IMG/VR virus record: IMGVR_UViG_3300013383_000030 | Origin: an uncultured virus (IMG/VR IMGVR_UViG_3300013383_000030) | Lineage: Duplodnaviria > Heunggongvirae > Uroviricota > Caudoviricetes | DNA: 64,000 nt | Direction: 5' to 3' (one strand) | Shown: positions 8,614 through 62,644 of the stretch, piece after piece | Layout: each line of letters begins with the position of its first letter | Position numbering within the stretch: position 1 is the stretch's first letter | Program-made: the position numbers and the translations under genes | Notes under the pieces: generated by a model | What the model was told of the DNA's origin: nothing | Database searches by the model: none | Seen by the model: the letters and a program-made list of their open reading frames with translations, nothing else

Positions 8614-8664
8614 GTGAACTTCATGTCAAGCTGAAGACCTGGCATCTTTCTCGTCATTTTTTCT
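8614..8664 (-). repeat. ~50-bp IS605-end mini-element, class A (guide AAAG, target TTAC). Other copies: 11150-11200, 16118-16135 (remnant), 17698-17747, 18299-18349, 19198-19247, 25827-25877, 26740-26793 (left end only), 60628-60678
   Basis: Consensus TTAC|awaaaawttgacgagAAAGatgccatgtcttcagcatggcatagagtTCAC. The 3' half matches the tnpB right end at 58262-58302. Confidence 0.9.
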
Positions 8665-8690
8665 GTAAATATAATTTAGAGGGTTTTCAT

Positions 8691-11093
8691 ATGGAATCAA
8701 ATGAGAAAGAGACTTATGCCGATAAAACAAAAAGAAGAAAGAAATTTCTCAGGCTTTTTGGTGGACGGTTTGCTATAGTGAACCAAGAGCATAAGTTCAT
8801 TCGTCGGGTCAGGAGGGGGAGGAAGACAGTTGCATATACATGGACGGACGATGTTTCAGAGACTATTCCATTTAAGACAAACGACATGGCTAACGGCTTC
8901 ATAACTATGTTTGGCAATCTTCCACTCTTTGGCAACAAGAACGGAACGGTTCTTTAGTCTGAACATGTTCGCATTGTCAAGATATACAGGGATCCTGAAT
9001 TAAACGAATCTGGATTTAAGGCCGATTCGTCAATTTTCGAGACTTGTCTGAATGAAATCGACGGTGATATTGGTGGTGACGAGTCTGAAATTGGAGATGA
9101 AATAGAGACCGGAAGGAAAATTTGGATTGACGACATCCGCGAAGCTCCGGAAGGATACATTTGGATAAAAACAGTAAAGGGTTTCATAGACTACTGTGTT
9201 GCGAATGGTCTTGATGAGATAGAATTGATAGACACGGATCACGATGCCGGTGAATATCAGAAGGACGGCGGTGACTACATCCGGTGTTTCGACTACCTTG
9301 ATTACTGTGGAATTCCAGACATCACGGTACATATCCACAGCGCAAATCCTGTTGGTGCGAACAACATACGTAGGATAATATCCAGAAATTCCGAGAACGG
9401 GTGGAAGGAAATACGGAACACGAACGAGGGTGTCCCAACAGACGGCAGGGCGGACGAAGGCACCATTCCACGCGAGGACGTCGAGAGATTCGTTGATGAT
9501 ACTGCGAATGAAATCGTCGGGGTCCTCGGAGAGTCTGGTAATGATGTAGACGTTGCGCAAATCAAGGATGAAATGTATGGGTTCATGTCAAAAGTGAACA
9601 CAAAGGATGAGCTTCGGGATTTCATGCGTGAGTACCAGGCAAAAGTCGACAAGTACTGTTCGGAAAATCCAAATTCTAAGACGTGTGTATTCCTGAGGAA
9701 GACGTGGGAGATGCTGAAGAAGATTGCGAAAGTTGGTGCATTTGTCGCACAGAATCTCCAAACAATCCTTGTTCTTCTTGCTACAGTATATGTCTGCGTA
9801 AAGTTCCATGTCGGACCGATTCGTGCAATCCAACTCGCATTCCAGGCTACGAAAACGATATATTCGGCCGCAAAGACGACGCTTGACACAACGACACGAT
9901 CTGTCGAGATATATAAAGACGTTTAGAACAGATCGGCTGAAATAGGCGACAGGGTTGGTGAGATTATCGGAAAGGGGATCGGGTGGTATGACACACTGAA
10001 GGGAAAAGTGTTCGGTTCATCGGGGAAGTCGAGGAAATACAATGAGACACAAGTTCTCGAAGACACCACCCCACTGGACATAACGGAGTCAATCCACTTC
10101 AACTTCAACGACGATAACATCGCGAAAGCAGATATTAGGATGATAGCCTACAGTGTTCATGTCGATGAGGACGATGACACAAGGGCGTATAATCCAAAGA
10201 ACAATCCCGACAAGGCCATTGACATAATTTTCGACTATCCACAGAACAACCTGAAGATTGAGCTTTTTCTCGATACGGAGAGTGGGGAATGGGATTCGTG
10301 GGTTAACGGAAACACCGGAAAAATCTCCCCGGAACAATATTCTGACTTTTTCCGTACGGCATTCTACAGAAGGCTCAGGGACAAGCTTAAATCGACATGG
10401 GCGAACACAGATCCCGTGTTTGCAAGACTTCTTGGTGCAATAGACAACAAGAAGTACAAAATAGATGGATGGGACAGACCAAGTGTGGACGCCAACAGGG
10501 TCGAAGAGGATTCGAAATTCGGAACCGGGAAGGCGGACATCGAGAAATCAAGGGAGAAAAATGCCGCTGGAAAGCAGATTAGAACCAGGAGTGGGCGGAA
10601 ATATATCAACCCAAGTGATTTCTCCGTGAAGCATGATGACAACGAAAAATACTACTGTTGGCCAGATCAGAGGGGGAAGGGTGTCTACAAGTTCGCCAAT
10701 TGGAGGAACTGGAAGAACATACGCCCCCTGTGCCGAATGAGGTTCGCAATGTCAAACCCGGACCACGTTTACGGGATCTCGATTTCCCCCCTTCCCGACG
10801 CCAATGAGAATCGCGGATTCCGTGCGTATGATCTGACAGCACAGCCTCCGCTCCAGTACCTTACACCAGAAGAGACCGCCATGATAATGGATCTTACAAT
10901 AGTACGGAAATTCCTGAAGAACGCAAGGGAGAGGATTGAGAGGTATCTTAGTGAGCCGGACGAGGAAATTTACAGGAAGATAAACAATCCGTCGAAATGT
11001 ACTCTCGATGATATAAGGCAGACAAAGAAGGCTATTAAGAACGCACTTGATGCGATCAAGAACTTCCGTGCAGATACCTACATTTATACTTGA
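8691..11093 (+). CDS. 800-aa multidomain protein containing a cyclic-phosphate-processing receiver-like domain; 2 internal TAG
   Basis: Three listed ORFs join in frame across TAG 8955 and 9924. Motif KIWIDDIREAPEG...DTDHDAG...IHSANPVG. Confidence 0.6.
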
Positions 11094-11217
11094 AGTTGGC
11101 ATGCCAACTTCAATTCTGGAAAGAGCATACATTTTGGTCAGATAGTTACAATAAAATTGACGAGAAAGATGCCATGTCTTCAGCGTGGCATAGAGTTCAC
11201 ACGGATCGAGAAATCTC

Positions 11218-11246
11218 TTGACTTTTTAGAGTCAAAATGCTATAAT
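11218..11246 (+). promoter_or_regulatory. Sigma70-type early/middle promoter TTGAC-N~17-(TGC)TATAAT. Similar sites near 19318+, 19764+, 29521-, 33089-, 34486-, 35441-, 41000-, 41933-, 44176-, 51765-, 60232-, 60373-
   Basis: ttgact-17 nt-tataat with an extended -10 TG. The same motif precedes most TAG-free genes. Confidence 0.8.
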
Positions 11247-11255
11247 TTCCAATAC

Positions 11256-12071
11256 ATGGAAAATTGTGCATTCGTTGACATATTCACTACACAGAACGAC
11301 CTGTATGGAAGCCATCAGTGCCCGATACAATTCTGTCTTGAGATATTCACCAATTCCGAGATATATGATGATGTGTTTTACAGTCCAAAGAGAAGGGTGA
11401 TGTTGAATTTGATTCCAGACGAGAGAATCATGATGCCAGGATTTGTAACATCTGGCATATCACCCACTTCCGTAAGCAGCTCTGATTACAATGGGTTTGA
11501 ACTGAAGGTTGGACTTGAGAGGATATATCACATTCTGAAGTCGATTTCTGACAAGGGACTATATATAATTGGATACAACCACGTGAATTATGATCTTAGG
11601 ATACTAAATGAGCATTTTGTGAGAATTCTTGGAGATGCACCTATTGTATTCGACAAGAAACTGATGCTTGACGTCATGAGGATGTCCGAGAGGTTGGTTT
11701 CAATAACAGAAACTGGCAGTTATTCGATGGAATCCATGTTCGCGTATCTTTTTGGCGATATTCGGAGGCTTTCGAACATCAGGTTGAACAAAACAACGGC
11801 GGCAGAACTCAGATTGACAAAGATGATGTTCCGTGAAATCGTGAAACGCGTTTTTCAGGAAAAACCGGAATTGCACAGTATTTCGGAATGGACAAATCTT
11901 CCGTTGGATGCTTCCGTCATGAGATTCGGAAAATACAAGGGGTTGCCACTTGAGAAGGTTTTTGAACTTGATCAGAAATATCTCAATTGGATACGGGGAA
12001 ATAAGGACATGAAGTTGTCAAATCCGGAACTTGTTGAAGCTGTAGAACGTATTTTCAGTGAGTCAACTTGA
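11256..12071 (+). CDS. DnaQ/DEDD-like 3'-5' exonuclease with a degenerate ExoI motif and a C-terminal FGKYKG domain
   Basis: VDIFTT in place of DxETT, IGYNHVNYDLRIL, and MRFGKYKG...YLNWI. Confidence 0.55.
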   Translation: MENCAFVDIFTTQNDLYGSHQCPIQFCLEIFTNSEIYDDVFYSPKRRVMLNLIPDERIMMPGFVTSGISPTSVSSSDYNGFELKVGLERIYHILKSISDKGLYIIGYNHVNYDLRILNEHFVRILGDAPIVFDKKLMLDVMRMSERLVSITETGSYSMESMFAYLFGDIRRLSNIRLNKTTAAELRLTKMMFREIVKRVFQEKPELHSISEWTNLPLDASVMRFGKYKGLPLEKVFELDQKYLNWIRGNKDMKLSNPELVEAVERIFSEST

Positions 12072-12094
12072 CATCTACTATAAATTTGCTATAC

Positions 12095-12144
12095 ATAAAA
12101 CTTGCAAGATAGATGCCATGTCTTCAGCATGGCATAGAGTTCAC
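12095..12144 (+). repeat. ~50-bp IS605-end mini-element, class B (guide ATAG, target ATAC). Other copies: 19464-19513, 22340-22390(-), 27351-27378(- partial), 43355-43404(-), 46607-46656
   Basis: Consensus ATAC|ayaaaattcgcaagATAGatgccatgtcttcagcatggcatagagtTCAC. Confidence 0.9.
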
Positions 12145-12149
12145 AACAA

Positions 12150-13127
12150 ATGGAATCAAAAGAAAAACTGAACCGCATTCTCGTTGCGATGGACGTGTCA
12201 AACTTCGTCTATTTCGTGATATTCCTTGCCGAGAAGCAATGGGGTTCTGAATGTAGATCAGATTGGGAATCCGTTCTTGGGGAGTATGTTGAAAAGGACC
12301 CCGACAACCCTCCCGATCTTCTGAACTTCGACCGCTTCCGGGTAATCCTTAGGAATGTCGTGCAGAAAAGACTCGAGGCAATAAACTGGATTGTCAGGAA
12401 TGCCCACCAAAACGAGGTGGATATGTCGGATGGTATAGACATAATACTCTCTGAAGACTCCCCACTCGACGGTTCGTTCAGGAAAAGGCTCTATCCCGAA
12501 TACAAGGCTAACAGGAAACTTGTCATACACAAGTATAACATATTCGCGTTGAAAAGATACGTCCAAAATGTGATATTTAAGGAACTGGAAATTGAAGAAA
12601 AATATGGGTACAGAATCGTGAAGGTGGAAGGTTGTGAATCTGATGATATAATAGCCGTTCTGATGCGCAGGTTCGACAACTACACGCTTCGGATTCTCCT
12701 TTCGTCGGACAGAGATTTCCTCCAACTTGATGGAGTATACCAGTACACGATGTCCGGGATGCCAGTGCAGAGGAAAATAGCAAAGAGCACGAAAAACAGG
12801 AATGGATTTGATATGACCCCGAACGAATTTCTGTTGTGGAAGATAATACGCGGGGACAAATCTGACAATATCAAGAACGTGTTCTCTGGATATGGTGAAT
12901 TGAAGTCATACAGGCTGATGAAGGATAAGGCTACACTCAGGAAGATGCTTTCTGAAAGCCAGGAGTCGTACAACAGGTTCATGCTTAATAGGAAACTGAT
13001 TGACTTTCGTGAGATACCGAAGGAACTCGAGGACAAGATCTATTCTGTTCTGAAAGAGAAGCTTTCACAAAAGACACAGGTTGATCGTGTCGAGGAGTTC
13101 TCCCTGAACAGCTGCATGGAAATTTGA
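12150..13127 (+). CDS. rnh: T4 RNase H-like 5'-3' exonuclease
   Basis: FRKRLYPEYKANR, ESDDIIA, SSDRDFLQL and GDKSDNI motifs. Confidence 0.85.
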   Translation: MESKEKLNRILVAMDVSNFVYFVIFLAEKQWGSECRSDWESVLGEYVEKDPDNPPDLLNFDRFRVILRNVVQKRLEAINWIVRNAHQNEVDMSDGIDIILSEDSPLDGSFRKRLYPEYKANRKLVIHKYNIFALKRYVQNVIFKELEIEEKYGYRIVKVEGCESDDIIAVLMRRFDNYTLRILLSSDRDFLQLDGVYQYTMSGMPVQRKIAKSTKNRNGFDMTPNEFLLWKIIRGDKSDNIKNVFSGYGELKSYRLMKDKATLRKMLSESQESYNRFMLNRKLIDFREIPKELEDKIYSVLKEKLSQKTQVDRVEEFSLNSCMEI

Positions 13128-13129
13128 AA

Positions 13130-13327
13130 ATGAACAAAGAAATGAACAACGAGGAAATAGCCGAAATCAATGCAGAAATCGAGAGGATGGTCGAGAGGAT
13201 TCAGACCGTGAAGGATCTTATTACAGACTACACCGTCTACAAGTCTGAGGTCGCGAGGAAGATGCTCGACGCTGCTCTCAGGAAGTATGCGCATCCGTTC
13301 ATTTCCGAGCGCAAGCAGGAAGAGTGA
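13130..13327 (+). CDS. Hypothetical protein
   Basis: Short ORF tightly packed in the operon after rnh. Confidence 0.5.
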   Translation: MNKEMNNEEIAEINAEIERMVERIQTVKDLITDYTVYKSEVARKMLDAALRKYAHPFISERKQEE

Positions 13328-14016
13328 TGATTCTCGTTCCGAAGTTCAAGCTCATCTACTACAAGCACCTTCTTGAGAATGCGTTTTCAAGATTCATAGG
13401 AAGACATGGAGACGATTTCGCGAGAGATGACGGAAAATATGTCTTTTCCTCAACGGTTTCAAGGAAAAGAATCAAGAACGAGCTTGAACATGACATCTCT
13501 TCCGAGATTTCAGGATATGCTGGTGGTTTCTCTGTTGAAAAGCCGGAGTATCTCATTGTAATAGGTTCCTGCTTTCCGAGATCGAACATACTGCTGAAGA
13601 ACCTTCCGCACGGAGTCTACATACCGGAAAAGCTCATGAGATACATGGAGGAGCACCCGGATGTCAGGTACTTCCATCGCGAGAAGGATTTGAAGTTTGA
13701 TGACGAGTCTATGAATTGCGTATTCGAGGAGTTGTTCAATCGGTTTGTCGGGAATCCACCCGGAAGGAACGTTGTCTTCATCAGGCACAGGAACCTTGAC
13801 TGCTATCTGATGTTCAAGGTTCTCAAGAGGATTTACGGAAGCGCGAATGTCGTCAACCTCCACGACGAGATGAAAGGCGACATGAGGGACTCCCTTGTCA
13901 GCATAAATGGATGGATTCTGAAGTACGCTAAAAAGAGGAACATAATAAATAATGATGACATGAGGCTGACGGTCGAGGAGATACACCAGCACCTCAGGGA
14001 GAGGATTGGGTTGTAG
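13327..14016 (+). CDS. Hypothetical protein; ends in TAG, and readthrough would add about 40 aa
   Basis: 229-aa ORF whose start overlaps the upstream stop (TGATG). Confidence 0.55.
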   Translation: MILVPKFKLIYYKHLLENAFSRFIGRHGDDFARDDGKYVFSSTVSRKRIKNELEHDISSEISGYAGGFSVEKPEYLIVIGSCFPRSNILLKNLPHGVYIPEKLMRYMEEHPDVRYFHREKDLKFDDESMNCVFEELFNRFVGNPPGRNVVFIRHRNLDCYLMFKVLKRIYGSANVVNLHDEMKGDMRDSLVSINGWILKYAKKRNIINNDDMRLTVEEIHQHLRERIGL

Positions 14017-14177
14017 TGGGAAGGAACAAGAGAAAGCAAATTACATCTACAAGCTGATACCGAAGGAGATCATGAGGAAGTTCGGGACTCTCGCGGAGTT
14101 CCGCTTCACGAGAAAGACGAAGAAACCGTCAAGGGTTTTTGACAGCTATCGTACGATTGAAGAGGTACTTGGAAAGC

Positions 14178-14702
14178 TCAGATGAAACGTTTCAGTTTCT
14201 CGTCAAATTTCCAGTGATACTTCGAATCCTTTGAAAGCCTTTGCTTCACCTCACACCATGCGTTGACTGGAATGTTTCCGGAATCAAACGTGTCGACGAA
14301 ATAGTTGCAGCTTTTCTTGCAGTTGACGTAGACAATGTGACCGCCGTCCTTCCAGTCGTTGACGTATACGAGATAGATTTTCCCGTCGTTTCTGTGAGCC
14401 TCTACCCATTCGTCAAGGGGAAGCTCGCCGTCGAACTTGAATGGATCATCCTCGTTTGGAAGAAGTTCTTCAATTGGTCCAATCCATTTTCCGAGCGTTT
14501 CTTCGAGTTCATAGAGATCGATGCCGTCGTCTCCTGTGAAGCCAACACCCTTTCTGCAGTCGACCTTCAGGAGTTTGCATGCGACCTCATAGTCGAGACC
14601 GAACGCACCGACAACGGCACGGACGAGACAGTCTCCGATGTTCTTTCCCCACTTGTTGAAGTTGAACAACTTAAGATTCTTGCTTTTCTTCTTCCGTTTC
14701 AT
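14178..14702 (-). CDS. Putative papain-like/C39-type peptidase-fold protein
   Basis: GDCLVRA...GGHIVYV...DTFDS gives a Cys/His/Asp pattern; resembles 35832-36629. Confidence 0.4.
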   Translation of the reverse strand: MKRKKKSKNLKLFNFNKWGKNIGDCLVRAVVGAFGLDYEVACKLLKVDCRKGVGFTGDDGIDLYELEETLGKWIGPIEELLPNEDDPFKFDGELPLDEWVEAHRNDGKIYLVYVNDWKDGGHIVYVNCKKSCNYFVDTFDSGNIPVNAWCEVKQRLSKDSKYHWKFDEKLKRFI

Positions 14703-14904
14703 TATTTGGTTCAAAGTTAGAACACCAGTCGATTGCGGGGATATTGATTTTCGGGAAGTTTGAGGTCGTGACCTAATATCCTCCCATGTTGACCGTCATT
14801 GGGACAGGTGGATTCAGCCTACAGAAGCACGGACGCGAGTCGAACCACCTGCAGTTGGCGCAGCAGGTTGCCTTCGGATCGACCTCATATTCCTCTGGAA
14901 TCAT
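14671..14904 (-). CDS. Small Cys-rich protein; one internal TAG
   Basis: CANCRWF...CRLNPP...(TAG)...FP...DWCSNF; the motif is completed only by readthrough. Confidence 0.55.
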
Positions 14905-16043
14905 TTTGCTTCCATTTCCTCTTGCTTGACGACCATCTTGTTGAGTTTCTCGAATTCCCTGTCGGTCAGGAATTCGGTCGGATCGTTTTTTGTCCACCTC
15001 TCCGATAGAGACTTGAGGAAGTTCATTTTCTCCTGGAGCGTCATGTTGACGAATGACTTTCCGATGTTCGTCTTCTTCAAAATGTCCTTGTAAATCCTTG
15101 TGTATTCTTCGCGGAGGGAGTTCTTTTCATCGGCAGTAAGATTTTTCGGTTCCTCGGCTGGAGATTTGGTTGGTTCTACCTTTTGCTCATCACCTTTCGT
15201 ATCATCCTCGTTTTCTTCAGAACCGTCGCCAGAAGGACTTTCCTGTTTTGGAGCATTGTCGTCCCGTTTCAGATCTTCCTGGTTGGGTTCGTTTGTCTTT
15301 TTTGTATTGTCGGTTTGTGTACTACCCTTTGTGGTAGCGTCATCACCAACTCCAAACGACGAAACATCTTCGGTCTTGTTTCCAGACCTAGAATCGGTCG
15401 AGACATCTCCCGTCTCCTGTTTCTCAAAATCCTTCGAATCGTCTTCTGATAAGTCGTAGAGGTTCACACCAGGCTATTCCCATGTGATATTTGGATCGAC
15501 CGCTCCGGACTACTCGACACCAAGAACCTTGATTTCCGTGCATCCAAGCCCGGCAACACTTGAAATGCACTCCTACTTTGCCCCATCCATGTTAAATGCG
15601 TTGGAATAGTACTCACCAACCTTCGGGTGTCCATCCTTAAGCGCAGAATAAAGGACGGTGAAAGATGGATTTGTACAATTGTTTGTCTGAACTGCCGTGG
15701 TGTTGTCCGCCCCAAGCGGCGTAAGCGAGTCCCCTGGACCACCACAGAGAGTGTTGGCGTAAGGATCGTCACGTTCACTTTTGGGTTCCACACCAATTTC
15801 ATCTTCACTTTGCTATTCATCCTTGACCAAACCCCGTTTCACCGCGCACTCGTAGAGCTCCTCGACCTTTTTTCTGTCGTCCTCATTGAGGTTCTCTTGA
15901 TCGAGCGTATAGAGATAGGGGTGACATTTGCACATCTTTTTGCACGACAAGAGGCTCTGTATTATGTCGTATGTTCTGTCGAATTTGTTCTGGTCGATTT
16001 CCTCTGAACAAGACTCGGCGAATATCCCGGCGAGTTTGCCCAT
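14901..16043 (-). CDS. Acidic hypothetical late protein, 380 aa, 4 internal TAG
   Basis: ORFs 15813-16043, 15573-15791 and 14901-15467 share one frame separated only by TAG; GTAAATA lies upstream. Confidence 0.6.
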
Positions 16044-16198
16044 TTGTTCTCTCTAAAAGTGGCGATAGTCGAAGTCAAGATTCATCTTTTTAACACCTTT
16101 TTGACAAAGATATTTACAAAGAAATGACGAGAAAGGGTTTGATTTCAACTCGTGGAGGAAAACATTGCAGTGTGTTTTGAGGGTCCGTCATCGTGTTT

Positions 16199-16237
16199 TT
16201 GAAGCTAACAATCATCTTCAGTGATTGTTAGCTTCAA
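16199..16237. repeat. Palindromic IS605-end-like hairpin ending TTCAA; relatives near 49908-49940, 56526-56570 and the collapsed palindrome 11090-11113
   Basis: ttgaagctaacaatca-tcttcag-tgattgttagcttcaa has the same CTTCAG loop as the other mini-elements. Confidence 0.6.
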
Positions 16238-16283
16238 GTCAGCATTCAGAATTTTTTGCATGAAGATTCAGAAAAACCAAATA

Positions 16284-17465
16284 TCACGATACCACTCTCC
16301 CGTACAATTCATATGTCACCTTTTCGCCAGACTCATTCTCAAGTGTTATTGTAACTTTTTCGTTCGTCTTTACACACTCGTCAAGAGACTGATGCGTAGT
16401 GAGGAAACCAGAATCGTTTGTAAGTTGTGACGTTTTTGATGGAATCATCTGGTCAACCTCTGCCTTGGAATACGTCTCGGTCTTTGAATAGGCTTCATCC
16501 TTGGAATATGCCCCGACGTCTGACGCCACAAGTGCGATGTCGGACGAAAGAGCCTTGCCGTTCACCTTCCGGGACACCGGGACATCTCCTTCGAGGTGCG
16601 TCACGGTTGATGCAAGCGCCCCGACGTCTGACGCCACAAGTGCGATGTCGGACGAAAGAGCCTTGCCGTTCACCTTCCGGGACACCGGGACAGCACCAAC
16701 CTGTGTGGCCGTGACACCGTGTGGGTTTTTCACGTTCGCCACATGGTTGGCAATCGTTGTGTTCGTCGTGCCGGTCTGTAGGTCGACATAGGTCTTGACG
16801 ACCTTGTTCTGGACCGGATTTTCGCTTGTGTCACTAAGCGTGTCATCAATGGTTATCGGACCGGGGAGGTCGTTGTTTGTGATGTACCCGGTGTCATTCG
16901 TAAGCTCAGACACCTTTGTTGGAATTACGGGAGCCGAGTAGTCCGTTATGTCCGAGAGAACGTGTTTGTGTCCGATCATCGAGACAACGTCCGGATCTAT
17001 TGAAATCGTCTTGTCTTCGGAAATGTTAATACCACTACCGCCATTGAAGATGAACACATCCGAAATGTCGACATCTATTGTAACGGTACTTCCGTCAGCC
17101 TTGTTGAACGTTATCACAAGAGAATGTGAATCCTTCTTGTAGACGACGTTTTTGACCATCCCGGTGAAGATAAACTTCGATATGTTTATACGGCGCTCAC
17201 TGGCGTCGGTCTTCAGTACAAGATCGTGTTTCGTTGTGTCATATGTGAACTCCATTGTCGTGTCGTCCACATATGTATCGCTTATCGTATTCAGCGTATC
17301 AAACTCGTCCTTGAACGATTTCCTGAGACTATTCACAAGATTTGCATAATCAAGACCAAGCGATCTCAATGCGCTTGAGGAAGTCCTCTTCGATATGAGG
17401 AGAATGTCCCCGTTCGAGACCTCTCCAGCCCTTGCAAGTTCAGATATTTTCTTTATGTCATCCAT
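16284..17465 (-). CDS. Tail fibre-like structural protein with an internal duplication
   Basis: HKHVLSDITD, KVSELTNDTG, NPHGVTATQVG and two copies of VPVSRKVNGKALSSDIALVASDVGA (DNA direct repeat ~16510-16583 and ~16618-16691). Confidence 0.7.
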   Translation of the reverse strand: MDDIKKISELARAGEVSNGDILLISKRTSSSALRSLGLDYANLVNSLRKSFKDEFDTLNTISDTYVDDTTMEFTYDTTKHDLVLKTDASERRINISKFIFTGMVKNVVYKKDSHSLVITFNKADGSTVTIDVDISDVFIFNGGSGINISEDKTISIDPDVVSMIGHKHVLSDITDYSAPVIPTKVSELTNDTGYITNNDLPGPITIDDTLSDTSENPVQNKVVKTYVDLQTGTTNTTIANHVANVKNPHGVTATQVGAVPVSRKVNGKALSSDIALVASDVGALASTVTHLEGDVPVSRKVNGKALSSDIALVASDVGAYSKDEAYSKTETYSKAEVDQMIPSKTSQLTNDSGFLTTHQSLDECVKTNEKVTITLENESGEKVTYELYGRVVS

Positions 17466-17469
17466 TTTG

Positions 17470-17685
17470 TCATTCCTCCGAAATTCTCCACCCGTCCTCG
17501 AAGACTATGTAGGCGTCACCCTCCTCCGTCTCAAATCCTTCGTCCCAGGTGATCATGACCGGCGTGTGGAAGAACCTGTAGAGCGCCGTGTTCCTTCTTA
17601 TGCTATTCAGGAAGATGCCCTCCTGGTAGTCTCTGTTGTTTCTCCCACTGGGGTTCGCTTTAAGATTGCTTCCAAACTCGTTCAT
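17470..17685 (-). CDS. Small hypothetical late protein
   Basis: ORF between GTAAATA (17691) and the fibre gene. Confidence 0.45.
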   Translation of the reverse strand: MNEFGSNLKANPSGRNNRDYQEGIFLNSIRRNTALYRFFHTPVMITWDEGFETEEGDAYIVFEDGWRISEE

Positions 17686-17808
17686 GAATTTATTTACAAA
17701 AAAACGACGAGGAAGATGCCATGTCTTCAGTATGGCATAGAGTTCACTGTTTTTGGTTGTTGCAAAAATGTTGTTGCAAAAATCTACTGGAAATGCTATA
17801 ATGTCACT

Positions 17809-18288
17809 ATGGAAATCATCGGAGTAACGAACGAGACGAAGTTCAATGACGCGAACTACAAGAACGCAAAAGTGACGATTTCACTTGTTCCATTCTCGAA
17901 CGACGTCAACTCATTCAGACTGTTCTGCAACGTCAACAGGGAGTACAATCTTGTAGACTACGGGGACTATTTCGTTCCGTACTATCATGCGAACGGATGT
18001 CTCGGAGCGAAGACGATAATGGTCGAGACCCACATGGAGCGTTGGCGCACCTGTGAGGAAAGAATAAAGAACGAATGGAGAAACCACTTCATCAGCAAGA
18101 CGTATATCGACGAAAACGGAAGAAGCATGCCGGAATTCTACGGTTATTTCGACAGCCTCCGGAGGGCAAACCGGGAGTACAACATGAAGCTGAAGCCTTA
18201 CCTGTTGGAAAAACTGATTCCCTACGAGAGGATAAGCGATAAAAAACTGGTCGAAACGATAAGAAACCTTAGGTTCTCGTAGGTTTAA
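17809..18288 (+). CDS. Hypothetical protein ending TAG-GTT-TAA, compatible with either code
   Basis: ATG follows TGCTATAAT. Confidence 0.55.
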
Positions 18289-18345
18289 TGATATTTACAT
18301 AAAATTTGACGAGAAAGATGCCAGGTCTTTAGCATGGCATAGAGT

Positions 18346-19182
18346 TCACTCTCCCAATAAACAAATGTTTCCGTACGCCTCTGAAGACCTGAGCTCCTCG
18401 GTGAACTTGTCCCACTCAGCCTGTCCCTGCTCGCCGATTGACGTGTCCAGAGTTCCTCCACCAAGAAGCTGAACTGACTGGAACTTCTTCCTTATGTCCC
18501 CGAGCTGTATCTTGCACTTCGCGAGGAAAAGCTTCTTCACGTACTCGTTTCCGAGAAGCTCCTCCACTGGCGGCTCGCATTCGCAGGTTATGAGAATGCT
18601 GTCCTTGCACGGATACCCGAGCTTCGGAGTCGGGATAATCTTCAGCCTCTGCGAATTCCTGAAGAACCTCCACTGGGGTGCACTTCCAGTAACCCTGTTC
18701 GCCATCTCGATGAACTCATGGAGATTGTGGAGCGAGACCCATCCCTGGTTTCCTATTCCCGCGCCGTTCCCCCCGGGGAAAATGCCCTGTCCGGCATATG
18801 AGTTCATCATTCCATAGGGACCGAAAATGAAGTCGCAGCCCCAGAGCTGAAGAAAAGCATCCCTCCTGAACGAAATATCATGTATGTCGGCTATCTTGTA
18901 CTCGGAAAGGTCAAGTCCGCACTTCGGATCGTACTTCTCGAGGGATACTACGATGTCTTCCACGTCGAACGATGCAAACTTCGTGTAGAGCTCCAGTGCT
19001 TCCTGAAGGGCTATTTCGTAGTGTTCCCTCGTCAGCTCGACAGTCTGGAGCGGATATCCGAGCTTCACCTATGCATAGTGTATCATGTCGTCCAGCGTCC
19101 TTATGTGCGGACGAAGGAACGTTGAGGAAGCCTCATCGTCATGCCTCCTATTTGACTCTTCAACATCTGGATTGACGACCAT
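18346..19182 (-). CDS. T4 gp13-like neck protein; one internal TAG at 19069
   Basis: LDDMIHYA(Q)VKLGYPLQTVEL...YVKKLFLAKCKIQLGDIRKKFQSVQLLGGGTLD. Confidence 0.8.
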
Positions 19183-19352
19183 AACGGACATATTTACAAA
19201 AATTTGACGAGAAAGATGCCAGGTCTTCAGCCTGGCATAGAGTTTGCGGTTTTTCCGGAAGGTCCTTTGGCGAATTTCCTGAAAATGTCTTGAAATGTGC
19301 GGTCTGATTAAATAGGGTTGACAAGTGTGTATGAAAATTATATAATTTTCTC

Positions 19353-19738
19353 ATGTTTTTAGAAAAAAAGCCACGTCGAAGCTTCAAGAGTACGCACGTC
19401 TCCACTTCCGGAAGAAGAGGGAGCGCGAGTCTCTTCTGGGAACCCATGAGGAGAGCGAAATACATGAAATTCGCAAGATAGATGCCGTGTCTTTAGCATG
19501 CCATGGAGTTCACGGGTACTGGGTGAAACACGAGAGGGGTGATCCTCGCTTCAACAGGCGCAACGTTTGCATCTGCGTCTTTAAACACCGCGAAAGGTTT
19601 TCTTATGGTACTCCTCTCGACTATTTCAGAATTGCGCTGAAGTGGTCCTGGAACGATGGGCAGGTCTGCGAGGTGGCGCCGAGGGCGGGGCTGGACGGAC
19701 ATGGGGATCTCTGTGAGCTGCTCGAGAAATGGCGTTGA
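19353..19738 (+). pseudogene. Hypothetical gene frameshifted by a 50-bp class B mini-element (19464-19513)
   Basis: Removing the element joins ...RRAKY to GYWVKH... into one 111-aa ORF behind a consensus promoter. Confidence 0.6.
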
Positions 19739-20551: not shown

Positions 20552-20604
20552 AAAACTCTTTTGGCAATTCTCAAATTTTTGTGATTTTAGCAAAGGAGAA
20601 AACA

Positions 20605-22773: not shown

Positions 22774-22774
22774 A

Positions 22775-23551: not shown

Positions 23552-23576
23552 GTCAAAAATCCTTTTGAATATTTAC

Positions 23577-51827: not shown

Positions 51828-51876
51828 GTCAACTACGCACCGATCTTCAGTCGGTGCGTTTCCTCGGCTGAAACTT
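51828..51876 (-). repeat. 49-bp IS605-end mini-element, class C (guide GAAA, target TCAT). Others: 62576-62624, 37977-38028, 51725-51747, ~60573-60621
   Basis: TCAT|aattttcaaccgagGAAAcgcagccatcttcagtcggtgcgtagtTGAC; shares caaccgaggaa with the left end at 6794. Confidence 0.85.
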
Positions 51877-54337: not shown

Positions 54338-54745
54338 TCAGTTCCACATCTTCGAGTTTTTGTACTCGTCAGAATTCATGGTGTATTCCAGGGCACAGTC
54401 TGCCTTGAATATGTTGAGCGCCTTGTACAGGGCGGACTTCGCGACCTTTTTGGATTCGCACGACTGGTAAGCCCAGCACGCAATTCCCTTCACGATGTCG
54501 GGAAGATCGAGTTCTGCGTGGTCGAGATCGTATTCGCCAATGTCATCATTAGACCACGGTTTGTTACAGTATCTGGCATTAAGCGATTTCAGGTTGGCTT
54601 TCCGAAGCGCAACAAAGAGGTCTTCGGGACCGTTGATGTCTTCTGCTTCAAATGCTTGTTGAAGCGAGGTGTTGTATTTCCCGCGCTTGAAGATCTCATA
54701 TGCGAGACTTGACAGATTTTTTTTGTTCATCAGAAACGCCGACAT
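54338..54745 (-). CDS. Hypothetical protein
   Basis: AAAGGA RBS; N..SLNARY and YQSCE motifs. Confidence 0.6.
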   Translation of the reverse strand: MSAFLMNKKNLSSLAYEIFKRGKYNTSLQQAFEAEDINGPEDLFVALRKANLKSLNARYCNKPWSNDDIGEYDLDHAELDLPDIVKGIACWAYQSCESKKVAKSALYKALNIFKADCALEYTMNSDEYKNSKMWN

Positions 54746-54880
54746 GTGATTTCCTTTCTTTTGCGTATATTATAACATATGGATTTTGTTTGTCAAGTTG
54801 TTTTTTGACTGGATTGTGACCCCCCCCACGCCACACCAACAACCTTGCATTTCTCTTGTAAATACGAATATCGCGAAAGG

Positions 54881-56509
54881 ATGAACCCTATGACAACGGG
54901 AGTGCCAAAACTTTTAAAAAAAGAAACCAGTGAATTGGATTTAAACCAGGAAGTCGTATACGATATCGAAAACTTTAAAAAACTATTGGACAAAACCATG
55001 GTGTTTTCGAATTTGGAAGATGCGAAAACATATGCAAAAGGAAAAGAAACCAATGGCGAACAGCTCGTTGATTCTTCCCGTGTTGGTTAGATTTTGACTG
55101 TATATGAAAATGACATTGTCAAATCATATGTCATTGATGCTAATAGAGAGCTTGATGAAATAATTTTGTCTGATAATGGAATAGTTGAAATCAATGGTGT
55201 TTTGAATGCAACTCCAAATGGTCATTCTAACATATATTCTAAAAATGGTTCATCAATTGGCAAAGCATTCTTCAATGAGGTCAATGGAAAGACTGGTATT
55301 GTCAAAAATACTATTGGAAGTAAAGGTTTCCATGCAATTGGACTGAAAGTAGAAAAAGTAAACAATACTGATACTCTTAAAATCAAGTTAGATGGTGACT
55401 TAACCGAACTGAAGACTTTGGTTAAAAGTGAAAGTTATAAAGAAAACACAGGAAAATATTGGTTCAATCTTTATCTAGGATCGACAAACAATCATCGGTT
55501 TGGATATATAACTGATATTGATGATGACAATTGGGCTACTATAAACAGAAATTATTTTGGTGAAAATGAATGGAAATCTTTAAAAGATGTAACTGAAGAA
55601 ACATTCAGATCTTGGTTTGATTCAGATTTGACTCTTCAGAACATGAATGCATTGTTCTTTATCAATTATCCAACACTTGGGAATACTGTTGTCAATGTAG
55701 GAACATCAAATGCAATTGGAGTTGGTTGCAGTGCATCTGGACCTGGAGCTTTAGCTACTGGATATGTGACTAGAGCAAGTGGAATTGGAGCACATGCAGA
55801 AGGCGCTCAAACCACAGCAGTTGGAAGTGCACATGCAGAAGGTGTTGGCAGTGCAGCAATGTCAAATAATTCACATGCCGAAGGATATTACACTCAAGCA
55901 AAAGGATATTTTTCACATTCAGAAGGTGGAATGACAAAAGCACTAGCTAAAGCTTCGCATACTGAAGGATGGAATACTGTAGCAAATGAGGGTGCAGTAC
56001 ATTCATTTGTTGGTGGTTGCGATAATACAACCAATGGAGACACATCATTCACATTTGGTTATCAATTATATAATAATGCTAAACATACTATGTTATTTGG
56101 TGGTGAAGCATATGTTGGAAACATAGAAAGATCATTTGTATTTGCTCCAGTTTATCAAGGAAAAAATGAAAATGGTGCATATTTAGTCAGTAAACATGGT
56201 ATTAATCCTACAAGTGATGCTGAAATAAAGAAACTAAGCTATGCATTTATCGTTAATTCTAATAAACATGATGGTCTAGATTCAATTGTTGTTAGATCTA
56301 CTGTTGATGGTAAAGCCGTATTCAAGACATTAAAAGAGTATATAGATGAAAATTACATCAACAAGTCATTGTTCGATTCGATTTCGTCCGACAAGAAATT
56401 CAGTGCCGATGCCAAAGCAGACCTGACCACCAACGAAGGTAAAACAGACGCACTAAAACAAATTCTATTGTTGCTTGGAATGAAAGAATCAAACATCAAA
56501 ACACTTTAA
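54881..56509 (+). CDS. Tail fibre/adhesin-like protein with S/AHAEG (YadA-head-like) repeats; 1 internal TAG
   Basis: Joined across TAG 55088; AHAEG/SHAEG/SHSEG/SHTEG repeats; GTAAATA upstream. Confidence 0.7.
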
Positions 56510-56741
56510 GCAAAAGGAAAATCGTTTGAAGCTGGCAATCACTGAAAATGATTGCCAGCTTTCAGCAAGTTAATTGTGAACTCTATGCCATGCTAAAGAC
56601 ATGGCATACAATTATAATGCAATCGTACGATTTCTTGAAATGACGGCGACGTAGGTGTATGATTGTGAACTCTATATAGAGTTCACAATATTTAAGCAGC
56701 TTAAGAGTCATTTTGAAATTGACAAAGTCAAACTCTAAATT

Positions 56742-56829: not shown

Positions 56830-57004
56830 AAAATAAAAACATTCGATTTTCAAAGATCAATTTAGAACCATAAATGTTTATGAAAATTATATCTTAACTA
56901 TTTTTTCATTATCAACGAATTTTTGCAACTTCACTTTACTTTCACTACTTTTCTACAACAACCAGTTAAACTATCCAAATCATTTCTCCGTCATCATCGT
57001 GAAC

Positions 57005-57089
57005 TGGTCGGGGTGGGGAATTCCGAGATCCCAAGGCTTTCGCACATGATCCCAAATCATGCCCGCTTCCACTTACGGTCTACACCCCG
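57005..57089 (-). tRNA. tRNA-Pro(TGG), atypical T-loop and extra arm
   Basis: CGGGGTG acceptor, catga-TT-TGG-GA-tcatg, CCA. Confidence 0.8.
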
Positions 57090-57099
57090 TTAAAAATAT

Positions 57100-57170
57100 A
57101 AAACATGTCGGACTTGCACCGATACCGCACTCCACAAGAATGCCGCGCTTAAGCCTCTACGAAGCTTGCA
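57100..57170 (-). other. Degenerate tRNA-like structure
   Basis: T-arm atcgg-tgcaagt-ccgac and hairpin gcattc-ttgtg-gagtgc, but no clean acceptor stem. Confidence 0.3.
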
Positions 57171-57236
57171 ATCGACACGGAGGCGGACTGTTTCACGTTC
57201 ATTGTACTTCAGACGCTTCGACGATCCTTACACCAA

Positions 57237-58302
57237 TGCTGAAATGGTTTCTTATTTCTTCTCTGTCATCAAACATAGAAGTTCTAGGTTCTCAAATCAA
57301 ACAAACTATAATTTCAAGAATGATTTCAAATGAGAAGACCATCATGGCTTTGGTCAAGAAAGGTCTTCAGAAACATGGAAATCTTAAATTCAAAAGTAAA
57401 CTCAATTGCATTCTTTTGAAGCAATATGGAACAACTTATTCTTTCAAATCTTTCAACAAGGTCAAAATCCAGGGTATTTCAGGAAAAGTTTTAGTCAGGA
57501 CAGGAAACCAGCTTCAGATAGTAGATGAATTAGCAAATGCAAACTTAATCAAGAAACCAGATGGATTTTATTTGAAAGTGACAGCTTACATAAACAAAGA
57601 AAATTTTAAAGAACAGAAGAAAAATGGAAAGGAAATCGGTCTTGATTTTGGTATCGAGACAAACATAACAACTAGTGAAGGTGAAAAACTTGATGTATCT
57701 ATTGAAGAAAGTGATCGTTTAAAGAAACTTCAAAAAGAAATGTTTCGAAAAGTAAAAGGATCAAACAACAGATACAAAACAATCAAGCTAATCCAAAGAG
57801 AGTACCAGAAGCTCTCAAACGGAAAACAAGACAAAGCAAACAAGATAGTTTCAAAACTGAAAAGATATGAAACTATTGTAATGCAAGATGAACAGATATC
57901 CAACTGGCATAAAGGTTTGTTTGGAAAACAGATTCAACATAGTTGTCTAGGCTTGGTGAAAGCAAAACTGAGACGACTTCCTCAGACAATTATTCTTGAC
58001 AAATGGATTCCAACAACTAAATTATGTCCAAAATGTGGAACAATAAACAAATTCATAACTTTGAATGATAGAACTTATCATTGTGGTTGTGGATATGAAT
58101 TTGACAGAGATATCCATTCAGCTAAGAACATGTTGTTCATCAAGGATCTTGTTTTCAAAAAGAACAATTTTGTACCGATGGAACATCGGGAAATCACGCT
58201 TGTGGAGTTCAAGACCTCTGTCAATGATGCTTGTAGTATTGTTGATAAGTCTGAACGATGAAACAAGAAGATGCCATGTTTTTAGCATGGCATAGAGTTC
58301 AC
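57237..58302 (+). pseudogene. tnpB: 5'-truncated IS605-type tnpB with intact omegaRNA/right end, inside the tRNA cluster
   Basis: GLDFG, MQDE, CPKCG...DRDIHSAKN; the N-terminus and left end are missing; the right end finishes GTTCAC. Confidence 0.8.
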
Positions 58303-59438: not shown

Positions 59439-59487
59439 GTCAGATACCCACAGCTGAAGACCTGACATCTTTCTCGTCAAGTTTTCT
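59439..59487 (-). mobile_element. Chimeric mini-element: class A left end fused to the right end of the 6786-8109 element
   Basis: TTAC|agaaaacttgacgagaaagatgtcaggt followed by cttcagctgtgggtatctgac, identical to 8089-8109. Confidence 0.8.
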
Positions 59488-60400: not shown

Positions 60401-60755
60401 GACCGTTTTCGCTTTCCGTTCAAAAAGATTCGGGACGGCTTTCGACCGTCCCGTCCCCCCCCTATGTATGGAAGCACATGTCAGGCGGTCGTGGAACAAT
60501 GGCTTCCGGGAGCATATTTAGGTATGTTCTTTGAATTAGCATTGTTCTCCGGCTTCCCGCTCATGTGTCCACAATTTTCAGTCGTTGAAATGCAGCCATC
60601 TTCAGTCGATGCGTAGTTGACGTTTACAATAAAATTAACGAGAAAGATGCCACGTTTTTAGCGTGGCATAGAGTTCACTATTGAAAAAATGTTCTACTGA
60701 TTCATGGCAACCGCTGAAGACAGGTTGCATTTTCTCAGCATAGGAGTTATAAACC

Positions 60756-61319
60756 TCACGAGACGAAATACACCATTCCGTTCCATTTCACAAGGACGGA
60801 CTCCTGCTTGAACGCGTTCCTGAGCTCCTCGGCAATCTTGAACAGTGTGTCCTTTCCGATTCCAACGACGTCGATGCTGATGGAATTCTCATTGAATGTC
60901 TTCCCTGTCTTCTGTTCGGTGTATGTTCCGACAAGATATCGTCCGATTGTCCATGCATAGACTTCATGTTTCCTGCGGATCTTGTCAAGAATCTTCATTG
61001 CGAAACGCCTGTTCTTGAATGTCTCGTAGATCTGCATAAGCTTGTTCTTGAAGGAATTCTTGGACAGTTCAACTGAATTGACATCAGTGGAGAACACAAT
61101 CGTACCTCCATTTGCAGGATTGGATGTGAAGAGGTATTTCTCCCACCTATCCTTTATATCCTCACCTTCGTCGATGAACGTGATGTCACTTTTGTCAGCG
61201 ATGACATAGAGGCATCTGTCACGAGTTGGGGTAATTTCGAACTCACCCCTGTTCTCCATGTTCTTCATTGCCTCGAAAAGGCTACTTCCGCCACCGAGTA
61301 TTGCCTTTGCGCTATGCAT
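60756..61319 (-). CDS. Hypothetical protein
   Basis: 187-aa ORF ending ...FKQESVLVK. Confidence 0.6.
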   Translation of the reverse strand: MHSAKAILGGGSSLFEAMKNMENRGEFEITPTRDRCLYVIADKSDITFIDEGEDIKDRWEKYLFTSNPANGGTIVFSTDVNSVELSKNSFKNKLMQIYETFKNRRFAMKILDKIRRKHEVYAWTIGRYLVGTYTEQKTGKTFNENSISIDVVGIGKDTLFKIAEELRNAFKQESVLVKWNGMVYFVS

Positions 61320-61335
61320 TTCACTCTCCCGAGAA

Positions 61336-61947
61336 TCAAAAAATCCGATTCAGTTTCTCGCATTCCGAAACCGCGTCGGGGTTGGATTTTTCAGCAACAT
61401 ACAGGCTCTTCAGCGAAAAAACATGCTTTCCCTTGACGATTTGGCTGGCAGGACCTCCGATGCGTTTCTCGAAGATGTCCTTGGCAAGGTTGAGGTTAAG
61501 CATTGTATTCGACTTCGTGTCGAACATCCTAATCACGTCGTCGACATTGTGTCTCTTTCCTTCGTAGTCCGTAAACGGTGTCGTGCAAACCTCGGCGCAC
61601 TTGTCTTTCGACTTGAAGATGATGCTCGACTGCTCGTACTTGTTTCCGAGTTCCATCGCGTCTTGCAGGGAGATGTTGAAAACCATGAGGGAACGTTCGT
61701 CAGATGCCTCCGATTCACCCGTCTTCTCATTTGTTTCAACCCATCTGGCGACAAGTTCGATAAAACCCAGATTCAGCTTGTCCCTGACTATTCTCTTAAG
61801 TTCTTGAAGATCTGAACGGTTCTCCCTCTCCGTTTTCGGCTCGCCGTTCGCCCTTTCGGATCTGTATGTCGAAATCATCGCAAGCGTCTTTTCGTCCTGA
61901 AGATGCTTGATTAGCCTTGTCTTTGAAATCTCGTTGACCATTTCCAT
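61336..61947 (-). CDS. Hypothetical protein, paralogue of 62021-62575
   Basis: Shared A.IS.Y, LG..Y.Q.SIIFK and E.CT.P.TD..GKR motifs. Confidence 0.65.
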   Translation of the reverse strand: MEMVNEISKTRLIKHLQDEKTLAMISTYRSERANGEPKTERENRSDLQELKRIVRDKLNLGFIELVARWVETNEKTGESEASDERSLMVFNISLQDAMELGNKYEQSSIIFKSKDKCAEVCTTPFTDYEGKRHNVDDVIRMFDTKSNTMLNLNLAKDIFEKRIGGPASQIVKGKHVFSLKSLYVAEKSNPDAVSECEKLNRIF

Positions 61948-62020
61948 GATTCTATTCCTTTATATAATATATAATATATAATATATATAATTACAGGATA
62001 TTTCGATTTCCCGGAACTGC

Positions 62021-62575
62021 TCACAAAATAGGAAACAGTCTTTCTTCACGTGAGAATACGGTCGGTTTCGGATCCTCTACCTTATAAACTCCACTCAATG
62101 TGTATGAATTCCCATCACCGTTGGATTTGCCGCCGGGACAACCAACGCGTCTTGTGAAAATTTCCCTCGCCATGTCGGGTGTCTTGACATCGAAAGTCCT
62201 GACGACGTCTCCTTCACGATATCTTTTCCCATCAAAGTCCGTGTATGGGATTGTGCATATCTCCCGGCATTCACTCCCTGTCTTGAATATAATGCTCAAC
62301 TGGTTGTATTCCTTGCCAAGCAACATTGCCGTTTTCAATGGAATGTCGAAAACCATTGAACAGAATTCTTTAACATTTTCCGTATCATTCGTCTTGTCAT
62401 CGGTTCTAGACCATTTTAAGAAAAACTGCGTGACATAGAACTTCAGATGCCGGATTGACCATTTGAGACCACTCCGAGCCTCTTGGATTTCATCTTCTGT
62501 CATTCCATTTTTATATGCTGAAATCAGAGCATAAGACTTATACGTCTGGAACACGTTGAGAAAGTTTTCTTTCAT
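62021..62575 (-). CDS. Hypothetical protein, paralogue of 61336-61947
   Basis: Same shared motifs; a class C element abuts the ATG at 62575. Confidence 0.65.
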   Translation of the reverse strand: MKENFLNVFQTYKSYALISAYKNGMTEDEIQEARSGLKWSIRHLKFYVTQFFLKWSRTDDKTNDTENVKEFCSMVFDIPLKTAMLLGKEYNQLSIIFKTGSECREICTIPYTDFDGKRYREGDVVRTFDVKTPDMAREIFTRRVGCPGGKSNGDGNSYTLSGVYKVEDPKPTVFSREERLFPIL

Positions 62576-62644
62576 AATTTTCAACCGAGGAAACGCAGCC
62601 ATCTTCAGTCGGTGCGTAGTTGACGTTATCATAGTTTTTTGGTT

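Follow-up and report, generated by a model that had tools for sequence, protein, structure and literature searches.

Short hairpin repeats of about 50 nucleotides (nt) are scattered through a 64-kb stretch of DNA from an uncultured bacteriophage (IMG/VR record IMGVR_UViG_3300013383_000030), and they raise the question of what these units are and how they came to be there. This stretch, 64,000 nt in length and hereafter called the window, is part of the 79-kb metagenome contig L015 (100% match). A first-pass annotation had described the repeats as IS200/IS605 mini-elements in which a 4-nt guide at the hairpin foot co-varies with the flanking tetranucleotide according to the pairing rule of the insertion sequence (IS) IS608, and had proposed that they are either mobile units resembling palindrome-associated transposable elements (PATEs) or scars of recombination between left and right ends. 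Our analysis suggests that they are probably fused-end relics ("terminal-only PATEs") of IS605/IS608-like single-strand transposons, the core of which was deleted in place.

The repeats are well delimited from background. A 33-nt class-1 core matched the window 23 times at ≤12 mismatches compared with 0-2 times in each of 20 shuffles, and CTTYAG, the motif of the hairpin loop, was observed 119 times as opposed to the 59.9 ± 7.6 expected. A repeat search of the window returned families of 11-13 copies, and an nhmmer profile recovered the same places together with truncated ones. All units share a layout in which the target tetranucleotide is directly followed by a 14-16-nt linker, a 4-nt guide, a hairpin, and an 8-9-nt tail that ends the unit. 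The hairpin, with 8-bp stems and a 7-nt TCTTYAG loop, is sub-terminal and there are no terminal inverted repeats; DNA fold z-scores of two class-1 units were -2.6 and -1.95, and four compensated stem variants occur among the copies. Our counts rest on a hand-curated table of ends in the window. This table contains 18 complete single-hairpin units of 49-51 nt, none with an open reading frame (ORF), i.e. seven of class 1a, six of class 1b (one decayed), three of class 2, one of family F5, and one inter-family chimera. The other pieces are left ends that are truncated or stand alone (~8), one two-hairpin PATE (23577-23791), and four pieces with TnpB, namely a complete TnpB-only IS, a TnpB gene with a right end, and two remnants with decayed right ends.

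In IS608, as described in passages of He et al. 2011 (PMC3201880), the cleavage sites are read by guide bases located 5' of the hairpin foot, and site position 1 pairs with guide position 2 while site position 2 pairs with guide position 1 (T-4/A-34 and C-3/G-35). We tested the rule with the pairs 1:2, 2:1, and 4:4 (target position:guide position); a random tetranucleotide fits this rule with a chance of 1/64. The pairing of site position 4 with guide position 4 also belongs to IS608 recognition. Reportedly, guide/cleavage-site recognition in IS608 was the subject of Barabas 2008 and Guynet 2009. In the window, the rule is obeyed by 21 of the 27 left ends with a readable junction. All six left-end pairs fit (TTAC/AAAG, ATAC/ATAG, TCAT/GAAA, TCAC/GAAG, TTAT/AAAA, and TCAA/GAAT) and so do both intact right ends (TCAC/GAAG at 58302 and TGAC/CAAG at 8109), while none of the three decayed right ends (23791, 42754, and 50225) does. 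Because copies of one subfamily share ancestry, the independent evidence consists of the 8/8 subfamily pairs and not of the copy counts. These pairs include three states at guide 1/site 2 (A:T, G:C, and C:G), two at guide 2/site 1, and two at guide 4/site 4. The left ends that do not fit are 17698 (GAAG/TTAC), 22390 (ATAG/AAAC), 60573 (GAAA/CCAC), 27380 (ATAG/ATAT, with an ambiguous junction), 36709 (ACAG/ATGC, a decayed copy), and 50128 (AAAG/TAAA), the left part of which is overlapped by a TnpB remnant.

Two scans were independent of the curated junction calls. The first covered 49 hairpins with the same loop in the window and in G001, a 184.6-kb IMG/VR record that is the nearest relative found for the window. 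The predicted tetranucleotide was located 14-15 nt upstream of the guide 16 times, other offsets mostly gave 0-2 occurrences (five at offset 12 and four at offset 5), and the predicted site was found 9 nt downstream five times. In the second scan, seven records yielded 55 parsed class-1 left ends, of which 45 fit the rule at a linker of 13-16 nt compared with 1-7 fits in seven displaced control blocks; three further matches were unparsed. Thus, the mini-elements described in the first-pass annotation are real, and the guide/target association that it reported holds in the window and beyond it. The specificities that it listed all follow the rule, but the list was incomplete, and we add TCAA/GAAT at 49907-49956 (-); similarly, 17698 and 22390 are exceptions as stated there, but 60573 went unnamed. 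As far as sequence comparison goes, this natural set confirms the IS608 recognition code outside model systems.

The likely parents of the units are apparent from G001, which contains a full 1.9-kb IS at 75057-76968 on the minus strand. Its left end reads TATTTAC followed by 15 nt, AAAG, the hairpin, and ATGAATCGT, its right end reads GAAG, the hairpin, and a terminal AGAGTTCAC, and it carries a Y1_Tnp gene on the opposite strand together with a tnpB gene 80% identical to window 57266-58302. The window units consist of a left part of the type of this IS and a right tail of the type of this IS, and the unit hairpin plus tail also form the right end of the window TnpB element at 57059-58302. The shared linker, guide, and hairpin on a full IS with Y1 tnpA and tnpB bear out the assignment of the units to IS200/IS605 (IS608-like) ends. 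True left ends everywhere carry a GAATCG-containing tail (window 23596, 37995, 6806, and 60729; G001 4805), and the tail after true right ends is AGAGTTCAC or TAGTTGAC/TATCTGAC. The single-hairpin units, by comparison, have the linker and guide of a left end but the tail of a right end, and the bases after their hairpin are of the right-end type (AG). Because they join a left-end linker and guide to a right-end tail, the units are left/right fusions through the hairpin. It follows that the guide rarely matches the unit's own right site: it does so in 2 of 18 complete units (17698 and 19198) and in 4 of 23 right tails overall, the other two being true right ends.

The tnpA gene of the G001 IS is broken by a TGA stop and a 53-nt insertion. 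This insertion is a class-2 unit that follows TCAT, and its removal restores the reading frame. Because the flanking tnpA pieces match positions 40-93 and 96-120 of Pfam Y1_Tnp, the 53-nt unit is a discrete insertion. In the window, no Y1 TnpA was detected among 77 ORFs compared with Pfam, and tblastx with the tnpA of the relative gave no match, in agreement with the first-pass annotation. Among the 9 records searched, the broken tnpA of the G001 IS was the only Y1_Tnp match, and the other 8 records gave none. We also considered that the units could be sequences of the repetitive extragenic palindromic (REP) type served by a domesticated Y1 enzyme of the REP-associated tyrosine transposase (RAYT) type, and not IS ends at all. 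The single hairpins, the conserved 5' tetranucleotide, the many copies, and some inverted pairs (22318-22390) are reminiscent of such sequences. REPs have a fixed, protein-read motif. Here, the tetranucleotide is variable and changes together with the flank; a full IS605-like element with tnpA and tnpB has ends with the identical hairpin, guide, and tails; and no separate RAYT-like gene appeared in the window or the 9 records, the sole Y1_Tnp being the broken tnpA in the G001 IS. We therefore regard a REP-like nature of the units as extremely unlikely.

Comparison with related phages documents where the units begin and end. One further phage, ~77% identical to G001, is represented by fragments in the IMG/VR records G003, G004, and G007, all abundant in hairpin units. 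Opposite window 16118-16135, G001 reads GGAATATTTAC directly followed by GG, and the left flank is conserved up to the C. Likewise, BLAST homology to G001 ends at the C of the TTAC preceding 26740 (window 26739 corresponds to G001 182574); in both cases, the empty G001 site reads TATTTAC. The G003 minis at 41802-41857 and 56187-56242 face G001 sites that are empty as judged from both sides (TTTTAC directly followed by CCCC, and ATATTTAC directly followed by AAAAACC, respectively), the G001 site facing the G003 mini at 36669 is precise on the left side, and the G001 site facing a 216-nt PATE (G003 44566-44781) is also empty. Accordingly, insertion occurred exactly 3' of the predicted tetranucleotide and without target duplication. 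The units at 11150 and 12095 are absent from G001, but these junctions are blurred because the intergenic DNA is too diverged from G001 for a precise comparison. The empty sites thus place the junctions directly after the predicted tetranucleotide (16118, 26740, and the G003 elements), as anticipated in the first-pass annotation.

How could elements with two hairpins give rise to units with only one? In the model that we favor, a Y1 HUH TnpA, provided from elsewhere in the phage, by another phage, or by the host, would insert full elements or two-hairpin PATEs, each exactly 3' of the tetranucleotide with which the 4-nt guide at its left hairpin foot pairs. Within one element, the hairpins on the left and on the right form direct repeats that are nearly identical, and recombination or replication slippage between them could delete the core, which would leave behind the left linker, the left guide, one hairpin (often chimeric), and the 8-9-nt right tail. 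Guide and adjoining target would survive such a deletion together and, therefore, co-vary, and most relics would probably be immobile now because the guide that is kept mismatches the right cleavage site.

Two orthologous sites support this model. The 1.9-kb IS of G001 corresponds to a ~90-nt relic at the same site in G003 (54582-54671), and a ~290-nt G001 element (128921-129200), composed of a left arm, a TnpB 3' remnant, and a right end, corresponds to a 51-nt mini at G003 1614-1664. The presence of a long form in G001 and a short relic in the sister phage at both sites documents deletion of the core in place in these relatives. Chimeric hairpins point in the same direction. Specifically, class-2 units combine a left-end-type left arm, CGCAGCCA, with a right-end-type right arm, TCGGTGCG, resulting in two mismatches and, in a class-2 unit, a fold z-score of -0.69; a two-hairpin class-2 parent is present at G001 4790-4935. 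In class-1 copies, left-type sequence gives way to right-type sequence ahead of the guide, within the hairpin, or beyond it, and because the switch points vary among copies, the fusions appear to have formed repeatedly and independently. Of the two possibilities raised in the first-pass annotation, it is the recombination scar that gains from the pairs of long and short forms and from the chimeric hairpins. Beyond the anatomy, the pairing rule, the exact junctions, and the long and short forms at the same site in relatives, all of which are observed, we infer that collapse in place, and not transposition of the short form, made most of the window copies, and we hold this with somewhat better than even confidence.

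Several observations weigh against collapse in place. No long-versus-short pair was found for any window copy, and collapse is seen only in relatives that are ~77% identical. Short forms prevail in the window (18 complete units versus one PATE and two to three TnpB elements), and a second IMG/VR pattern scan gave 22 matches, of which 18 were single-hairpin units, three true left ends, and one a right end. Moreover, the three class-1 minis of G001 share a linker and an imperfect hairpin that are foreign to both ends of the resident IS, which is consistent with either a copied short form or a parent since lost; filled versus empty sites in which the mini is the filled form fit both explanations; and Dyall-Smith et al. 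suspected mobilisation of the 52-bp form (PMC3119063).

These observations lead to the alternative that the single-hairpin units are non-autonomous transposons and that, after one or a few fusions, TnpA acting in trans moved the ~50-nt form. We consider this a serious but less probable explanation, to be entertained tentatively. It would account for the high copy number relative to the long forms, for near-identical minis with shared derived features at the unrelated G001 sites 2148, 9502, and 149766, for the occurrence of one linker variant in different phages (window 60628 and G003 70779), for filled sites that are precisely bounded when compared with empty ones, and for the 53-nt unit within the G001 tnpA; the passages of Dyall-Smith et al. 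that we consulted raise the same possibility for the ISHwa23 relic (PMC3119063). On the other hand, the sole guide fails to match the right cleavage site in 16 of the 18 complete units, the AG after the hairpin is of the right-end type while in IS608, according to the parts of He et al. consulted, these bases form guide triplets for stable complexes (PMC3201880), several hairpins are weakened or destroyed by chimerism, and crossover points that differ between copies indicate repeated independent formation. That the ~50-nt units are active transposons although their one guide matches the left site only is doubtful. If they were, TnpA would have to cleave the right end in a way that has not been described for IS608, and a mobile ~50-nt unit would be the smallest known mobile DNA; conceivably, right-end cutting borrows its guide in trans from a different hairpin that occupies the dimer's second site.

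The window contains 20 TATTTAC sites, and nine of them are occupied (eight by left ends and one by a short remnant at 54839-54863) compared with few of the ~200 other TTAC sites; class 1a thus favours TATTTAC, a target longer than TTAC. G001 has 11 unoccupied TATTTACGG sites, often TATTTACGGTTTTT, of which at least four correspond to sites that are filled in the window or in G003. The preferred class-1a target is a recurrent phage motif, (G)AAATATTTACGGTTTTT, which is also found at window 2931 (-) and 36728 (+) and at the 11 G001 sites. On the opposite strand, the motif is located 12-30 nt upstream of start codons in the cases read, and on this basis it may represent a phage promoter element or promoter class. 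It may resemble T4 late promoters. A weaker possibility is that class 1a is specialised on a promoter-like phage motif, (A)ATATTTAC directly followed by GGTTT. Avoidance of the TTAC target in the window was considered and rejected: TTAC occurs at 0.36 of the composition expectation but at 0.83 under a Markov model (rank 20/256) and is, therefore, not specifically depleted. Class-2 units insert after (T)TCAT (window 62576 and 37977; G001 76825; G004 13893 and 15441) and, because this reads ATGA on the other strand, several of them lie immediately upstream of the start codon of an opposite-strand gene.

The proximity to genes also bears on the proposal that the relics were co-opted by the phage as regulatory hairpins, promoter-proximal or for RNA processing, and kept by selection. 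Nearly all units lie between genes or at the ends of mechanically called ORFs, class-1a copies sit in the recurrent motif (A)ATATTTAC followed by GGTTT that on the other strand is located 12-30 nt upstream of start codons, and the four base-pair variants at one stem position retain pairing. However, the stem covariation would be expected just as much if the transposase recognised the stem in the parent elements, units are absent at the same sites in relatives with no visible replacement, many copies are truncated or unable to fold, and orientation relative to neighbouring genes is mixed. Altogether, co-option appears improbable. From reading the sequences, we rejected the units as intrinsic terminators, as no T-run follows the hairpin, and as sigma-70 promoters, as there is no -10/-35 pair inside the unit.

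The individual copies illustrate the degrees of preservation. Among the class-1a units, those at 8614-8664 (-), 11150-11200 (+; absent from the collinear G001 region, with the junction blurred by divergence), and 25827-25877 (+) combine TTAC with AAAG, and the one at 60628-60678 (+) is inserted 6 nt after a class-2 unit and has the loop TTTTTAG as in the right end at 58271. The unit at 17698-17747 (+) has the right-end-type guide GAAG, which fits the right TCAC and not the left TTAC, the one at 18299-18349 (+) has mixed hairpin arms (left AGG, right CAT), and the tail of the one at 19198-19247 (+) ends in TTGC, so that its single guide fits both ends. A class-1a left end at 16118-16135 (+) is cut at the hairpin foot, retaining only the linker and AAAG, and the corresponding G001 site is empty; class-1a-like left ends are found at 25891-25932 (-), where the right hairpin arm is lost and G001 homology resumes, and at 26740-26782 (+), with a decayed tail and the end of G001 homology described above. 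The edges of a 9.8-kb segment, 16101-25949, without a G001 BLAST match of ≥150 nt (G001 has ~350 nt there) are the inward-facing truncated left ends 16118-16135 (+) and 25891-25932 (-); by virtue of this flanking arrangement, hairpins may mark a rearrangement or mosaic junction.

Class-1b units combining ATAC with ATAG are located at 12095-12144 (+), between a -10 box and the start of the gene at 12150 and absent there in G001, and at 19464-19513 (+), 43355-43404 (-), and 46607-46656 (+). The class-1b rule exception AAAC/ATAG at 22340-22390 (-) adjoins an inverted partial hairpin (22318-22342), the class-1b-like unit at 36660-36709 (-) has decayed to ATGC/ACAG, and a left end at 27346-27380 (-) is cut within the hairpin loop. 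Class 2 comprises the TCAT/GAAA units at 51828-51876 (-), with a perfect stem, and 62576-62624 (+), with chimeric hairpin arms and two mismatches, the rule exception CCAC/GAAA at 60573-60621 (+), and a true TCAT/GAAA left end at 37977-38017 (+) with the tail ACGAATCGG. In the unit at 51828-51876, the loop is opposite to the flanks (CTGAAGA and not TCTTCAG) with the stem intact, as is also the case at G003 74084-74139, G005 56600-56653, and G004 37564-37605. The F5 unit at 49907-49956 (-) reads TCAA, 15 nt, and GAAT, and its hairpin folds weakly; family F4 is represented by a solo TTAT/AAAA left end with a left-end-type tail at 60705-60748 (-). In the inter-family chimera at 59439-59487 (-), the linker, guide, and left arm are those of class 1a and the right arm and tail those of the F3 right end, with the junction inside the loop; the F3-derived letters are the same as 8095-8109, and no hairpin folds.

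The longer elements in the window begin with the high-GC, TnpB-only F3 IS at 6786-8109 (+; Pfam OrfB_IS605 and Cas12f1-like_TNB), both ends of which fit the rule. Its left end reads TCAC, 16 nt, and GAAG with the hairpin at 6806-6825, its tnpB spans 6843-8108, and its right end (8078-8109, +) consists of CAAG, the hairpin, and the terminal tail TATCTGAC. The PATE at 23577-23791 (+) has a true TTAC/AAAG left end, whose tail is ATGAATCGT, and its right end, 137 nt long, is related to the TnpB element's 3' end. At 57059-58302 (+), a TnpB gene with its right end (GAAG, hairpin, and terminal AGAGTTCAC) has neither a left end nor tnpA. A remnant of the TnpB C-terminus with a decayed right end occupies 42396-42754 (+), and at 50087-50225 a left-end-like hairpin (50087-50128, -) abuts a TnpB 3' remnant plus right end (50123-50225, +). 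Finally, a right-end-type hairpin and tail without a left part lie at 56576-56611 (-), with a palindrome of two facing tails nearby at 56655-56676. Such long perfect palindromes, in which the hairpin stands between a right-end tail and its reverse complement, are found at window 16197-16239, 56528-56562, and 56655-56676, at G001 162075-162120, and at G003 54648-54671; some lack the hairpin core (GTGAACTCTAT..ATAGAGTTCAC type). Our guess is that the palindromes arose by snap-back copying.

Judged by its predicted genes, the window reads as a piece of a very large, jumbo-phage-like genome: Pfam searches of its ORFs identified a terminase large-subunit N-domain, NusA-like, IF3-like, sigma-70-like, and ClpP-like proteins, an RNA ligase, and two Dam-type methylases, and ARAGORN predicted 8 tRNAs. 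In Rfam at the gathering score, the window gave only 5 tRNAs and no guide-RNA family. We read 11 promoter-type repeats of family D4 (TTGAC..TGCTATAAT) as putative sigma-70-like promoters. G001 is collinear with the window at 1430-16101 and 25949-26739 with a nucleotide identity of 71-85%. No match to 12 kb of the window was found by megablast in the phage collection, a metagenome scan with the protein encoded at 16284-17465 returned the window's own contig and distant matches but no close relative, an IMG/VR scan with the NusA-like protein gave no relative, and a run search listed no sequencing reads covering window 10500-20400. In species genomes, a strict left-end pattern gave 0 matches and a looser one two, of which one is a true ATAC/ATAG left end that fits the rule and is located on a contig without Y1_Tnp of a Sphaerochaetaceae metagenome-assembled genome.

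Other features of the window include an IS607-like arrangement at 44256-45869 (-) in a 32%-GC island, which consists of an ORF with a serine-recombinase (Resolvase) N-domain and TnpB in two ORFs (44256-44735 and 44751-45137). A 408-amino-acid (aa) ORF without a Pfam family at 48523-49749 is followed by a 115-nt repeat at 49731-49845 that recurs at 27549-27663 (77% identical) and partly at 56869-56896; ORF and repeat together may be another mobile element. At 24071-25801 (-), the ORF with the terminase large-subunit N-domain is just 238 aa long, two separate ORFs (195 and 138 aa) come after it, and the terminase gene may be split or interrupted here. ORF 16284-17465 contains an 80-nt direct repeat (16510-16697, 98% identical, with 108 nt spacing). 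GGCC and CTAG are strongly avoided in the window and in G001, GGCC occurring at 0.12 and 0.04 of the composition expectation, respectively, which looks like restriction-site avoidance.

The units provide a compact natural data set of six left-end and two right-end guide/target pairs on one loop within 64 kb, and they account for a common class of ~50-nt phage repeats, which is of value for annotation. They also imply that IS605-type elements can colonise large phages heavily and that the phages can then rid themselves of these elements via hairpin-to-hairpin deletion. The question, posed in 2011, of whether a single-guide fused-end relic can be mobilised is sharpened by these units, and their sequences are directly usable as test substrates. 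A literature search found no paper on single-hairpin IS605 relics in phages, although this does not prove that there is none; guide/target covariation (Meers et al. 2023) and fused-end relics (Dyall-Smith et al. 2011), as far as the consulted parts of these papers go, are already in print. Distinctive here are the phage setting, the six specificities on one loop, and the visible chimeras.

Among known systems, and with the comparisons referring to the consulted portions of the cited papers, the closest likeness is to Haloquadratum walsbyi, in which repeat-mediated loss of the HqIRS46 and ISHwa23 cores gives 52-bp terminal-only PATEs and two strains show complete and collapsed forms at the same site (Dyall-Smith et al. 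2011, PMC3119063). The units described here share with these PATEs the ~52-bp fused IS605-type ends with one near-terminal palindrome, formation by repeat-mediated deletion between two palindromes, and the occurrence of complete and collapsed forms at the same site in related genomes; they differ in that the carrier is a large bacteriophage and not an archaeal chromosome, in that at least six target specificities are found within 64 kb, and in that the parent hairpins are often non-identical, making chimeras, even between families, visible. With IS608 of Helicobacter pylori the units have in common the left TTAC and guide AAAG, linkers that are 14-16 nt long, cleavage on the right 8-9 nt past the hairpin, the bases AT behind the left hairpin and AG behind the right one, and the crossed pairing of target positions 1/2 with guide positions 2/1 (PMC3201880). 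Unlike in IS608, where the right site is TCAA/GAAT, the right site here is TCAC/GAAG or TGAC/CAAG, the full element of G001 has divergent tnpA and tnpB, and the effective class-1a target, TATTTAC, is longer. In Geobacillus stearothermophilus, the motifs flanking ISGst1-5 co-vary with DNA guides (Meers et al. 2023, PMC10055086), and as in the window there are several related IS families in one genome, with transposon-adjacent and transposon-encoded motifs (TAM/TEM) that co-vary with sub-terminal DNA guides, and many copies without tnpA, including gene-less PATEs; those PATEs, however, keep both ends and often the guide-RNA scaffold, whereas here the part between the hairpins is mostly lost. Finally, REP/RAYT (TnpA-REP) systems, the subject of PMC8266576 and PMC3479197, resemble the units in having single hairpins, a conserved tetranucleotide, many copies, and a link to a Y1 HUH enzyme, but the units in the window consist of two transposon tips with a variable guide, and no RAYT was found in the window and the 9 records.

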